Source: Octopus vulgaris (Eukaryota). Taken from it: 64,000 nt of DNA. The DNA lies in assembly GCA_951406725.2 (NCBI GenBank), contig OX597817.1, forward strand, positions 67,456,001 to 67,520,000, given 5' to 3'. A model generated the notes under the pieces. That model was not told where the DNA came from. It ran no database searches and saw nothing but the letters and a program-made list of their open reading frames with translations. This document shows positions 8,379 through 62,900 of the stretch, piece by piece; position 1 is the first letter of the stretch; every line of letters begins with the position of its first letter. Position numbers and translations under genes: made by a program.

Positions 8379-8479
8379 ATATATATATATATATATATAT
8401 ATATATATATATATATATATATATATATATATATATGCATGTATGTATCTATGTATGTATATATATACAAAATTTAGAA

Positions 8480-8533
8480 GACTGTCCACTAAAAATGGAT
8501 AGCCTATAGGCTATCCATTTTTAGTGGTCAGTC
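8480..8533. repeat. 54-bp palindrome next to (TA)n
   Basis: GACTGTCCACTAAAAATGGATAGCCTA|TAGGCTATCCATTTTTAGTGGTCAGTC, one mismatch. Confidence 0.9.
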
Positions 8534-8534
8534 C

Positions 8535-8870
8535 TTTTACTCTTTTACTTGTTTCAGTCATTTGACTGCGGCCATGCTGGAGCACCGCCTTTAATCGAGC
8601 AACTCGACCCCGGGACTTATTCTTTTTGTAAGCCCAGTACTTATTCTATCGGTCTCTTTTGCCGAACCGCTAAGTAACGGGGACATGAACACACCAGCAT
8701 CGGTTGTCAAGCAATGCTAGGGGGACAAACACAGACACACAAACAAACACACATACATATATATATATATATATATATATATATATATATATATATATAT
8801 ATATATATATACATATATACGACAGGCTTCTTTCAGTTTCCGTCTACCAAATCCACTCACAAGGCATTGG
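8535..8870 (-). mobile_element. SINE family A, 5'-truncated
   Basis: Matches the family consensus, including the internal (TA)n. Confidence 0.9.
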
Positions 8871-58243: not shown

Positions 58244-61200
58244 GGAAAATAAGACAAGGTAGAAAATATTAAAATAATATCATGAAGAACATTTTAGTAC
58301 CGGTTCCAGCCTTTGCGACTTTCTCAACTTGGATTAAAGCATGAAAAACAATTAAATTGTTGAAAAATTAAATGAAATGTTTTTTAAAAATATTTCCATA
58401 GTTTTCAAATGTAAGGAATATTTTCTTTTTTTCTGTCTGTCTCTGCCTCTCTTTTTTACTCTTGTGAGGGCTTGGTAACAGGTACATATTTTATATATCA
58501 TATCCCACACGAGATACAGAAAATGCCGACAAAAACAGACACAGTCACTACTTATAAATGAAGAAATACTGAAAGAACTCAAGATAATCAACACAAATCT
58601 GTCAGCGTGTTTTAACAAATTCGACTCGACACATGGACCGAATCGAGAGAACATTGAGGAAATCGATACGAAAAATACAACCTCCGAAATTGTCGAAAAC
58701 CTTGGAAACTTATGCGAAACAGAACATTTTTCTCAAACAACGCCAACCAAGGACCACCGAACGAGGCAGCATATGCGATCAATACACTAACAACATACCA
58801 AATGAAACAATACACAGTACAACAATGAAATCACTCAGAGATAGAAAGTTCGCCTTTTGGAAGATGATCCAAAACAACAACAAAGCGAATGTATACGGCA
58901 AATGGCTCAATCTGACACCGTTAATTCCCCCGTACAAACTCCAGATCAAAGCCATTATAGATGAACCTGAGGCGCAAATACGCCTCAGGGAAAGAATACC
59001 ATTGGAAAAATGAAGATGGAAATAGAACTTCTAAAACTGAGGGCTCAGACGAATGAAGATAGAGCAAAATCCACCGATGAAGAGATCAACCAAGAAATTA
59101 AACAAAATGACTCAAGGCCCCGACCTAGAGAAGATATCCAAACTAGGGAAAGAGGATTGTGATAAAGACGAACTGAGATCCCTCCAACGCTGAGGAAAAA
59201 AGTGCCACTTGGTTCTCAAACTATGAAACTGTCTTTCAAACAGAATACACTTCCAAAAACCCTTTCCTAAGACTAGAAAATCGAAGCAACACTCAAGCAC
59301 AGATTCACACCTGTCTAAAAAACCGGAACCATCACCCCCTACCGAAAAAGAATAGAAGACCTAATCCTAAGTTTGTAACCCACCATCATCGGGAGTACCT
59401 CAACATGAAACAGAGAAATGAAAATCATTACCCGCAGGATAGATATTGCAACCTTCTCTCCAATGAAATTTTCGTTCCAACAATCTACTAAACAACCACG
59501 CACAACAAACCCGTACCACACGTAATAATTACCAACGACAGCCCCCTAAAACACCACATCCGAACATGAAATATAGAGACACACCTTTCAATACCTTCCC
59601 AAGAACCCGCACCAGAAATCACATCAGGGCACTCCACAACAAGGAACAACTACATAACAGCAACCGACCCGATCTCAATCATTTTTGAGACCCAATACGC
59701 AAACACAGAGATACGAGATAGCACCAGACAGACAGGAAGAACCAAAAATGATAAACCAAATAAACAGCAAATCAAATCAACATAATCTCCAAAGGGCTCA
59801 ATTTTACACCCCCACCAACGCCCAAACTACAACGAAATGAATGAAGCCGTCTCGGAATTCTGTAGAAAATTACGACTCACTGAGGAACTATACGACAAAT
59901 ACAAAGAGGACGAATCGTTAGTCCAAAATAGAAGTAACAACACCCCTTCAAAAAGTAAGAGCAAAATTCTTGACCATTTCTATGAATACATCTCGAATTA
60001 CCCACATCAAGATATACACAAACAAAAACACAAGCCAAACTTCAGCAAAAAAAAAAGAATGGGTTGAGCTGAACAAATTAAAAGCTGGTAAAGATAACAA
60101 TCAAAGAGGCCGATAAATGGAGTGCAGTTGTCTTAATTGACACGTTATACAATACAACTCTAGCACTAACCATATGAAAAGATCCAACACTATAGTCAGC
60201 AGAAAATAATGAGAAACCTAAAATCTATGTTAAACCTATACAGAGAAGGGCTCACCGACAAGGAATATGATTATATGACCAACTTCAAAAGTAAAACCAG
60301 CCAATTCTACAGTATTCCCAAGATACACAAAAGTGAGAAAATAAGTAACGCATGCAGGATAGCCACATACATAATAATCAAGTTCCCTACTCTTAATGAT
60401 CTCAAATTAAGACTTATAATAGCAGGTCCCGCATGCGAAAACACCACCTCATTAACTTTTTAGACACCCTCTTAAAACCATTCCTTAAGTATATCAAAAG
60501 CTACATAAGGGACGTCCTAGATATGCTCAATCACCTCCCTAAAATAATAAACAAAAACACCCTACTAGTATCCACCGATGTAGTCAGCTTCTATTCTAAT
60601 ATCCCCCGCAGCCTAGGAACAGCGGCAATTCAATTCTGGCTAGAGAATTAATCCAATGAACTCCCACATCACATCAAAAAAGAATTCATAATAGAAGGGC
60701 TAAAATTCATCTTGGAGAATAACTACTTTGTCTTCAACGACAACTTCTATCGACAAAAATCGGGGACTGCAATGGGTACGAGAATGACCCTACCTCCTTT
60801 GCTAACCTAGTCATGGGATACCTTGAAATCTTTATCGTAAGGTACTAGAAAATACGGCAACCCATTCTCCCTCTACATAGAAAATAACTGGAAGAGCTAT
60901 CTGGATGACTGTTTTGTTCTTTGGCATGAAAGTACAGAGAGATTTAAAGAATTTCAAACACTAATAAATGGACTTGACGTAAACATTCAATTTACAATGG
61001 AATATAGCCATCAATAACTTCCATTCTTCGACATCCTCATTAAGAAATCTAACAACGAAATAGAAATAGATATATATACTATAAGCCCACGGACTTCAAG
61101 CAATATCTACCGTTCAACTCAGGCCACCCCAGATACTAGAATGAATATCCCTTTCAACTTAGCAAAAAGGATTTGTACTATAGTTTCTAATACAAGCACC

Positions 61201-62442
61201 AAGGAAACACGACAACATGAACTAAAGGATATTCTCGTTACCAGGAACTACCCACCATCATTAATTGATATAGGCTTTCAACGTGCCCTACAACTCGACA
61301 TCCACGAACTCAGACATCCTAAATCAAAGAAAGATTTACAACCTTACCATACATCTCCACACACAACCCTCTTAAGAATAAAACCTTCGACACCATCCTC
61401 CAAACATACCCCTACTAAAAAGGGACCACAGAATGAATTTAATCCTCCAAACCTCACCGTCATAAAAAGCAAAAGACAACCCAAATCTATGAAATGTCTC
61501 CTAACACAAGCCCAAGTACGCTCGACAACACTGAAACCGTCAGTAAAATAAATGCAGAAGACCTAACTGTGGTATATGTGTCAACCTATTTGAGGGATCG
61601 GAGTTCTTTTTCAAACAGTGTCAATATATGTATTCACTTGCTCTGGGTGTCGGGAGCAATACATAGGCCAAACCAAAAACAGTCTACGTCAAAGGATGGC
61701 TGTACATAGATCCCAGATCAAAATTCGGGAATACAAAAGAATAGCATTCAGCGAATACATCGACATTTGCGCCACTAACAAACAACCCAGCTTCAGAATT
61801 TTTCTCCTCTATAAAACTCAGGGACGATGCAACTTGTAGTCAGCGCATTGGTAAAAAGTAATATTTTACCACAAAATATAAACCCTTTTTGAATGCATAC
61901 ACCATAAATGACACTATTAGAAGGGCCTCAGAATAATACCCAAGCACATTGTTGAAAACGATATATTCAGAACAATCACTACCCATGAATCTATTAAGAA
62001 CAGTTCCAATCACTACTATTACAGCCACAACAGGTCACTTTTAGGTTAAGTCACTTGACCATTTAAGAGGATTCCACCAACAACCTTCAACTGTCATACC
62101 ACTTCCACATTCTTCTTCTTCTTCTTCGCCGCCTCCTTTCTCAGCTGCTACTACTGCTTAAACAATCAAAACCAAGAACTCATATCAAATGTTAGGACTA
62201 CTACTACCTGCTACTTGCTACCAAGCCCTCACAACGGTAAAAAAAGAGAGACAGACAGAAAAAAAGGAAAATGTCCCTTGCATTTGAAAACTATGGAAAT
62301 ATTTTTTAAAAACATTTCATTTAATTTTTCCACAATTCAATTGTTTTTCTTTAAGTTGAAAAAGTTGCAAAGTCTGAAACCGGTACTAAAATGTTCTTCA
62401 TGATAAAATTATTTTAGCATTTTCTACCTTGTCTTATTTTCC
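58244..62442 (+). mobile_element. Near full-length degenerate Penelope-like element (Neptune-like) bounded by inverted pLTR copies
   Basis: SKGLNFTP, FCRKLRL, TIKEADK, FYSIPKIHK, DVVSFYSNIP, QKSGTAMGT, YLDD, NIPFNLAKRIC, CRRPNCGIC linker, IYVFTCSGCREQYIGQT..RQRMAVH. Inverted repeats 58244-58483 and 62212-62442. Confidence 0.9.
62351..62390 (+). ncRNA. Degenerate pLTR hammerhead (mirror copy on the minus strand at about 58293-58332)
   Basis: UUGAAAA AGU-UGCAAAG-UCU GAAA CCGG UA CUAAA, with palindromic ACCGGU. The other copy has stem II AGUC-GCAAA-GGCU. Confidence 0.45.
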
Positions 62443-62553
62443 ATATATATATAATTAAAAAGTAATGTAATAATACATTACGGAGGTTGTATTATAAGCA
62501 ATTAATAATTATTTATGAATATATCAATGGCCAAACATTTTATCATAAAATTC

Positions 62554-62900
62554 ATAGAAGAATGTTTATAATTAGGAACAAGTCACAATTATAACTAAGA
62601 GGGTTTCAAAACCCTTACATGTTTAAAAATAACAGCCAAAACCGCTATAAAGCCATTTTTATCATTCATATTATTTCTCTTCACAATTGAAACTGTTTGC
62701 AGGCGATAAGACAAATAGAATCTACAAATTAAAAATAACTGGTTAATTCCCTATTGCAATTTCGACGTGAAGAGAAATAATATGAGCGATAAGAATGGTT
62801 TTATAGCGGTTTTGCCTGCTATTTCTAAACATGTAAGGGTTTTTTTAAACCTTCTTAATTATAACTGTGACTTGTTTATAATTATAAATATTTTTCTATA
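62554..62900. repeat. Diverged fold-back (~130-bp arms) near short (TA)n
   Basis: Arms 62554-62683 and 62767-62900, e.g. ACCCTTACATGTTTA/TAAACATGTAAGGGT and TATTATTTCTCTTCAC/GTGAAGAGAAATAATA. Confidence 0.85.

Follow-up and report, generated by a model that had tools for sequence, protein, structure and literature searches.

Fold-back insertions of Penelope-like elements in Octopus vulgaris pair a tailed with a tail-less arm, which may reflect priming on both target strands

Inverted, 5′-truncated copies of Penelope-like elements (PLEs) with a tail at one end and a bias for (TA)n have been described, and their mechanism called unresolved (Craig 2021, PMC8557442). A tail on one of two inverted pseudo-long terminal repeats (pLTRs) has also been reported, with self-priming proposed as its origin (Arkhipova 2013, PMC3846280), and hammerhead pairs on opposite strands have been noted (Cervera 2014); comparisons with published work refer throughout to the accessible parts of the papers cited. 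Here we analyzed fold-back elements in a 64,000-nucleotide (nt) stretch of Octopus vulgaris DNA (GCA_951406725.2, contig OX597817.1, positions 67,456,001 to 67,520,000), hereafter the window. An earlier note on this DNA, made from its letters, had presented the fold-backs as a system of their own; their structure is already published and does not define a new system. The octopus units share with published inverted PLE insertions (PMC8557442, PMC3846280) the head-to-head arrangement, the tail on one arm, the palindromic junctions, the partial tandems, the (TA)n preference, and the pLTR hammerhead. They differ in that the published tail is optional and 30 to 40 bp long, with the mechanism open or ascribed to self-priming, whereas the octopus tails measure 37 to 105 nt, the one-tail rule is backed by counts, and it is the tail-less arm that more often exceeds the other in length. 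What is new is this counted rule, with arm-length classes that favor the priming of both strands of the target (twin priming), together with the finding that retrozyme-like units follow it as well and an estimate of the share of hairpin potential.

Masked self-BLAST and direct reading of the letters located all of the fold-backs listed earlier (9/9), as well as a tenth unit that had been overlooked (the distant family I relative in Table 1), with 11 tight fold-backs in the 64 kb. The asymmetry claimed for the arms held up and differs from family to family, the tails measuring 37 to about 105 nt, and PLE coding sequence was confirmed in the two units said to carry it. The assignment to mostly unrelated families held in that several lineages are present; the 14298 unit and the inner 28780 pair, however, are one family (A), and the outer arms at 28646 belong to no repeat family. 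A "family B" for these outer arms was rejected, as their 26-mer occurs nowhere else in 2.8 Gb.

Each family has two fixed 3′ ends, an outer, tailed one (T) and an inner, tail-less one (N). They lie at +110/+42 in family A, +116/+55 in E, +131/+33-43 in D, and +122/+54 in C, and are 37 nt apart in H; both family E ends were also joined to TA in independent short-read contigs. When 113 head-to-head events were scored, 86 paired T with N, 2 paired T with T, 3 paired N with N (two of them mis-calls due to insertions), and 22 were unclassed. Three of the T+N rows represented one old insertion carried inside family A and were dropped, leaving 83. The one-tail rule also appeared in 16 long family A events (in this set the genome locus L200, L-numbers denoting individual loci, scored N+N, and L204 and L214-L219 were left unassigned) and in 13/13 events of C′, a subfamily of C (27 loci). 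In total, 112 events paired a tailed with a tail-less arm, versus at most 5 same-ended pairs.

The relative lengths of the arms bear on how these insertions formed. With a difference of more than 8 nt required to call one arm longer, the tail-less arm was longer in 31 of the 83 T+N events (one row, L326, is doubtful), the tailed arm in 16, and 36 were level; the corresponding counts were 7, 5, and 4 for the long family A events and 8, 2, and 3 for C′. Pooled over the 112 events, the tail-less arm was longer in 46 and the tailed arm in 23, with 43 level. Differences reach kilobases (L202, L203, L033, L377, and window 58234, where a tail-less arm of 4 kb faces a tailed arm of 280 nt). Some tailed arms consist of the tail only, with little or no sequence common to the other arm: seven after deduplication, plus L244 and L246, and further L362, L365, and L371, two of these being 17 to 18 nt long. 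Tail-less copies also occur alone (L006, L044, L055, L062, and about ten more in the C′ set), indicating that the inner site can start a first strand.

The earlier note had proposed snap-back second-strand synthesis as the main route. Snap-back from the tail start can give only tailed arms that are equal or longer, and a cDNA begun at the inner site would lack a tail for copying. Snap-back predicts that the tailed arm is never shorter, which is at odds with the 46 tail-less-longer events, including window 58234. This family H unit and the tail-only arms, which can be as short as 17 nt, therefore call either for priming to have occurred twice or for one side to have been deleted later. The two arms share their subfamily haplotype at 21/23 loci, compared with 8.1 by shuffling (maximum, 15), arguing that they come from one RNA or one source. 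Among the junctions of 86 events, 29 overlap by at least 2 nt, 26 are blunt, and 31 contain extra bases, and templated duplications were present at L206, L207, L209, and L212. End joining is expected to yield overlapping, blunt, or filled junctions with templated duplications, and the observed mix agrees with that expectation. Of 90 cases, only 1 (window 28646) is a real instance of copying that continued into the flank.

We favor twin priming of both target strands, followed by end joining, as the probable route of head-to-head PLE insertion, judging from sequence. The GIY-YIG/reverse transcriptase (RT) protein would nick both strands of a (TA)n tract, and one cDNA would start from each nick. 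One of them would begin at the outer start site of the family and yield the tailed arm, and the other would begin at the inner site, 37 to 105 nt upstream, and yield the tail-less arm. Both would most likely be copied from one RNA, or from RNA of one source copy, in a geometry that could involve strand displacement or a tandem RNA. Joining of the 3′ ends of both cDNAs, whether bluntly, through a short overlap, or with templated filler, would follow and would also supply the primers for the second strands.

In LINE-1 twin priming, two target 3′ ends prime on one RNA, and the inverted junction is repaired by end joining. Those inversions are occasional, use variable internal sites, and leave largely non-overlapping segments. 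In the octopus PLE units, by contrast, the inner site does not vary, and overlap of the arms, the usual case, gives hairpins. We found no twin-priming account of PLEs in the openly readable literature. A purified lizard PLE protein, a predicted dimer, cleaves and extends both strands and has two internal start sites that define the tail (Poseidon PAc; Frangieh 2024, PMC11167929). These properties and its AT-rich targets are in line with the route proposed for the octopus units; cleavage by its ribozyme is dispensable. The accessible text of that study does not tie the two start sites to the two arms of inverted insertions. It describes no homology at the start site, whereas TA-like bases follow most of the octopus ends when read by eye.

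Several points weigh against twin priming. The 43 level-armed events, some with arms of 4 kb and 1 kb (L208, L210, L212, window 29987), need both polymerases to stop at the same point, that is, the same RNA 5′ end plus strand displacement, and they fit snap-back equally well. Palindromes are prone to centre deletions, and the tail-less-longer forms could arise if an inserted perfect palindrome later lost more of its centre on one side than on the other. The one-tail rule needs coordination, whereas no strand preference in start site was reported for the lizard enzyme (PMC11167929). The window unit at 28646, with its inverted copy of 82 nt of single-copy flank, is best read as snap-back that overran the end of the element and whose product was linked to a tail cDNA of 35 nt. 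A single site can therefore see both routes, and snap-back contributes at least occasionally. Finally, the loci came mostly from the first matches on one contig (C1), near its start, and the end classes were read from BLAST boundaries with a 14-nt tolerance.

Snap-back or self-priming as the general route, with one cDNA folding back and copying to an inner AT-rich site and later deletions at the palindrome centre producing the tail-less-longer forms, appears unlikely to us, although it is evident at 28646, where the flank was copied, and fits the level-armed class (43/112). The arms with common haplotypes and the palindromic 4-nt centres are as it would have them, and self-priming on an antisense template has been proposed (Arkhipova 2013, PMC3846280). 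It would require one-sided deletion in 46/112 events, twice the tailed-longer number, even in young copies (L033, arms 99% identical), and blunt or zero-loop centres give no priming hairpin; moreover, tail-only arms end near the inner site, and flank run-through is rare (1/90).

It is distinctly improbable that a dimeric ribonucleoprotein carries two RNA molecules from the same source locus, each priming one strand. Random RNA pairing is excluded by the 21/23 haplotype matches, and two free templates would less readily give level arms of 4 kb or so strict a one-tail rule; such a particle would make strand displacement unnecessary, and PLE hammerheads are thought to act as dimers, as the PLE protein is predicted to do. 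We give still less credence to whole hairpin units being transcribed and recopied as small non-autonomous elements, with many short hairpins descending from few masters. In family A, a centre that recurs at the edge of stem I (25/36 level) is what this would produce, whereas long forms also exist for each short haplotype, centres differ within a haplotype, and every junction is unique in the events that are long, ORF (open reading frame)-bearing, and lopsided. Fold-back artefacts of assembly or library can practically be dismissed: the mirroring ends at family-specific points beyond which the flanks differ, arm identity ranges from 65 to 100% in a genome sample described below, both 3′ ends were joined to (TA)n in independent short-read contigs, and the structure is published for other animals, against which stand four independent contig sets over 29915-31030 that listed no strand-changing joint, where contigs cannot settle a 1-kb hairpin loop, and recurrent 1- to 2-nt single-arm deletions at one site, which may be sequencing errors.

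The PLE origin proposed in the earlier note was supported, with ORF links for four families, three Hydra-type and one apparently Neptune-type. Families A, E, and C are the 3′ ends of Hydra-type PLEs located elsewhere in the genome (copy numbers are exact matches from pattern searches of the 2.80-Gb genome). Family A, with 5,989 exact matches to a 26-mer, was extended through a long copy to an endonuclease fragment, for which 150 scored places of 14,591 candidates had 99 to 100% identity. L200 holds a complete element, composed of pLTR, hammerhead, tail, 45 nt, ATG, ORF, and 3′ untranslated region (UTR). Its single ORF of about 713 to 718 aa encodes RT and, at its C terminus, GIY-YIG, and family A is the pLTR of this Hydra-type PLE. 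A PLE ORF beside L029/L035 was ruled out as its partner. Family E has 3,975 exact matches, and L378 contains intact 717-aa frames with RT and C-terminal GIY-YIG in 2.58-kb tandems. In both loci the pLTR with its tail derives from partial tandems (in L200, 5′ pLTR, tail, and 45 nt precede the ATG). For family C′, a single locus (L377) places it on the 3′ side of an ORF of Hydra type.

The A, E, and C′ elements agree with the Hydra clade of Craig 2021 in having RT and C-terminal GIY-YIG and in inserting in (TA)n. Translations of A and E also show its motifs, namely, DKT, a CxCx5C linker, and CxxC plus CxH around E/N, without CCHH; the RW motif reads RWK in E and RWR in A. Hydra elements are <3 kb, compared with 2.58 kb for E and ~5.3 kb for A, which owes its length to a 3′ UTR rich in microsatellites. 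Pfam gave a weak GIY-YIG match in family E (E=0.013) and none in the L200 protein, a PDB search with the L200 ORF returned 0 matches, and Atlas neighbours carry GIY-YIG/RVT_1. Octopus Hydra and Naiad families are listed in Craig 2021 (PMC8557442), whose supplement includes Hydra-1_Obim with (TA)n preference. The ORFs found here resemble Hydra-1_Obim by eye in the supplementary alignment; that supplement, however, lacks two short motifs of families A and E, and the octopus elements appear to be other families. By its translation, family H is probably a decayed Neptune-type PLE (DKW for the DKG-type motif, Cx4CxxC linker, one His lost from CCHH). Linking arm families to autonomous PLEs thus succeeded for A, E, C, and H and not for F (15 exact matches; an old family) and G (1,230 exact 28-mer matches), for which a same-strand upstream ORF was absent in 15 and 25 loci, respectively, despite two fixed ends and (TA)n.

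Several observations concern the family A loci. The 3-kb, microsatellite-rich 3′ UTR of the family A element holds a captured family D insertion, a tail-only arm inverted to a tail-less arm within the microsatellite (L031, L033, L188-L194, L266, L271, L279). This insertion is fixed in the 3′ UTR of a young PLE and is carried along with it. At L031 and L050, local segmental duplications (~2.4- to 2.5-kb units) duplicate family A insertions.

The same end structure extends to non-coding units. PLE mobilization of retrozymes has been proposed (Cervera and de la Peña 2020, PMC7229834; Li et al. 2026, 10.64898/2026.07.22.740005), and families D and I fit the non-LTR (long terminal repeat) retrozymes, being tandem non-coding units each with a predicted type I hammerhead. 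Family D (4,865 exact matches) has a unit of 559 nt, a longest open frame of 101 aa, and arrays of up to 6 units, with a hammerhead in both units of L253. Family I (279 exact matches) has a unit of about 520 to 535 nt, tandem continuation in 4/25 loci, and a hammerhead read by eye, which the 8480 copy stops short of. These units are longer than the ~300 nt of published retrozymes and show PLE-type tails and inverted arms; the word "inverted" occurs 0 times in the accessible text of PMC7229834. The suggestion that non-coding ribozyme RNAs moved with the same end signature is thus supported. Further young fold-back families were seen at L147 (8470-9602), L160 (7941-8758), and L120 (55-848); they comprise a ~290-nt tandem unit whose hammerhead is of the U3-A8 type, as well as hammerheads in which stem II carries inserts of 100 nt and 60 nt.

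To estimate abundance, 80 evenly placed 10-kb stretches (800 kb) of the genome were sampled. They contained 88 tight fold-backs, or 110 per Mb (bootstrap, 85 to 136). One end lay within 15 nt of (TA)≥5 in 30/88, compared with a control mean of 1.95 and a maximum of 5 in 60 placements; one end within 15 nt and the other within 120 nt of (TA)n was found in 17/88 versus 0.33 in the control. These counts support the (TA)n targeting and the large genome-wide numbers anticipated in the earlier note, and extrapolation gives ~70,000 to 160,000 TA-ended units genome-wide. The 99 folds of sample and window fell into 78 clusters, so many families take part. About two thirds of the sampled folds are not TA-ended and fall outside this explanation. 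PLE protein matches overlapped 0/88 tight fold-backs in the 800-kb sample, and the PLE identity of the sampled units therefore rests on their ends, their hammerheads, and family links to the window units. The hairpins are genuine genome-wide insertions of PLEs and of small ribozyme-bearing passengers.

Hammerheads were called with a descriptor scan for core boxes and stem I/III pairing and are predicted ribozymes. Of the five carriers claimed in the window, four have a complete type I motif (14298, 28780, 29987, 52685), and the fifth is not clear. No hammerhead was found in the window copies of family G (52866..53150) or F (62453..62899), and the 8480 and 22951 copies are truncated downstream of the ribozyme of their own family. 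Relatives of the 58234 family, like L147, have a U3-A8-type core, a published PLE variant (PMC4209133), which is weak in the window copy. Complete hammerheads occurred in 8/88 sampled folds versus 1.3 in the control, and a relaxed scan found them in 7/32 TA-ended folds and 2/56 others (control, 0.9/88). An Rfam scan showed no hammerhead among the 150 of 197 matches listed, mostly microsatellite-driven miRNA matches below the gathering score. The five hammerhead candidates had no significant z-score, their minimum-energy folds being no better than those of shuffles, so the calls rest on core boxes and stem pairing.

In short copies of families A and C, the 5′ ends are clustered at the hammerhead, on the 5′ edge of stem I. 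At this hot spot, an AG is invariant in 66/66 selected long family A arms. A discrete RNA 5′ end or a splice acceptor at the stem I edge would, if present, explain the level arms. In D. virilis, an intron ends at the hammerhead stem I edge; the octopus AG also pairs within stem I, so that its invariance need not reflect a splice acceptor. An extra G before the AG in five loci (L014, L038, L069, L070, window 14356) is possibly a capped RNA start or an exon end. On the 3′ strand of family A stem I, recurrent 1- to 2-nt differences, mostly deletions, affect one arm (10/29 loci discordant) and may represent sequencing errors or a mutation hot spot.

Table 1. Fold-back units of the window, with positions counted from its first letter
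Family	Unit	Arms (strand)	Arm identity	Other features
I	8468..8989	Tail-less arm (-) adjoins (TA)n; tailed arm (+); centre ~8506	96% at 8480-8533 (masked self-BLAST)	Tailed arm split by two SINE (short interspersed element) pieces (8536-8870), continues from 8871
A	14290..14491	Tail-less 14290-14355 (-); tailed 14356-14491 (+)	98% at 14298-14415 (masked self-BLAST)	(TA)n flanks both sides; type I hammerhead in each arm
D	22853..23270	Tailed 22853-23110 (-); tail-less 23111-23270 (+)	98% at 22951-23266 (masked self-BLAST)	Ends ~80 nt before ribozyme
A, complex insertion	28646..29306	Tail-less 28778-28996 (-); fold-back copy 28990-29133 with internal jump	Outer arms 28646-28727/29196-29277 and inner pair 28780-29131, 99%	Run-through: 29196-29277 mirrors single-copy left flank 28646-28727; joined to 35-nt family A tail-end piece (29272-29306), followed by (TA)n
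E, Hydra-type PLE 3′ end	29913..31994	Tailed 29913-30994 (-); tail-less 30995-31994 (+)		Arms 29974-30973/30995-31994, 1,000 nt each; 21-nt spacer, part of tailed arm; blunt junction; GIY-YIG-containing frames 30268-30993 (-) and 30981-31700 (+); hammerhead with CCGA box ~31895-31957 (+)
Distant family I relative	50329..50998	50494-50930	90%	Hammerhead boxes read by eye; PLE thumb/GIY-YIG fragment follows at 51114-51813
C	52613..52810	Tailed 52613-52760 (-); tail-less to 52810 (+)	90% at 52685-52805	CCGA-box hammerhead in tailed arm
G	52866..53150	Tailed 52866-53050 (-); tail-less 53034-53150 (+)	78% at 52952-53135	
H, probable decayed Neptune-type PLE	58206..62452	Tailed, short 58206-58484 (-); tail-less, long 58485-62452 (+)	86% at 58234-58484/62212-62452	Tailed arm adjoins (TG)n; long arm with broken RT and GIY-YIG frames, Cx4CxxC linker
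F	62453..62899	Tailed (-); tail-less (+)	77% at 62557-62896	Tailed arm adjoins TA run common to family H

Other repeats surround these units. Two 100% identical direct copies with TA tracts (8160-8371, 8536-8747), presumably SINE-like, flank the 8480 hairpin, and the second breaks its tailed arm. Fragments at 7796-8163 (-) and 51114-51875 (+), 86% alike, are 3′ parts of another PLE with C-terminal GIY-YIG; each ends at (TA)n ~60 nt past the stop and lies near a family I-like fold-back. At 26422-28150, decayed pieces of PLE RT occupy opposite strands (26560-27063, -; 27185-27496, +) and have a 42-nt inverted match; they are probably another, older head-to-head insertion. A perfect 38-nt palindrome lies at 12009-12046, at ends we take to be SINE-like. 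An old 69% fold-back at 44546-44747 has no TA tract and no relatives among the fetched loci, and a LINE (long interspersed element) fragment at 17611-19925 contains AP-endonuclease-like and RVT_1 (E=3.4e-25) frames.

The earlier note had linked the hairpins to double-stranded RNA (dsRNA) and editing, and this stands as genomic potential only. Following the measure of Porath 2017, 2.19% of 50-nt segments have a near-perfect inverted partner within 2 kb; the O. bimaculoides value is 0.44% (Porath 2017). Simple repeats contribute 1.24%, TA-ended fold-backs 0.50%, other pairs 0.25%, SINE pairs 0.12%, and other tight folds 0.08%. TA-ended folds make up 52% (29 to 70%) of the non-simple share, with three loci supplying 61% of their signal. 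Lizard Penelope is reported to be heavily edited (Porath 2017), and we found no published octopus PLE hairpins or their editing in the openly readable literature.

The origin of the inverted repeats and tails of PLEs has been named an open problem (Craig 2021), to which the arm statistics offer a concrete, testable answer. Reagents for such tests are at hand in L378 and L200, whose Hydra-type ORFs are young and intact and whose start sites are known. That non-coding hammerhead tandems obey this end rule too supports, directly and on structural grounds, the mobilization of retrozymes by PLEs. More tentatively, twin priming at two fixed RNA sites may be the normal route of endonuclease-bearing PLEs; it would explain the tail and the inverted pLTR in one step, would move retrozymes, and might make PLEs the chief origin, in this animal, of near-perfect hairpins other than microsatellites and hence of substrates for ADAR hyper-editing. 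If transcribed, the hairpins could explain a large part of the dsRNA potential that is reported to be high in octopus (Porath 2017).

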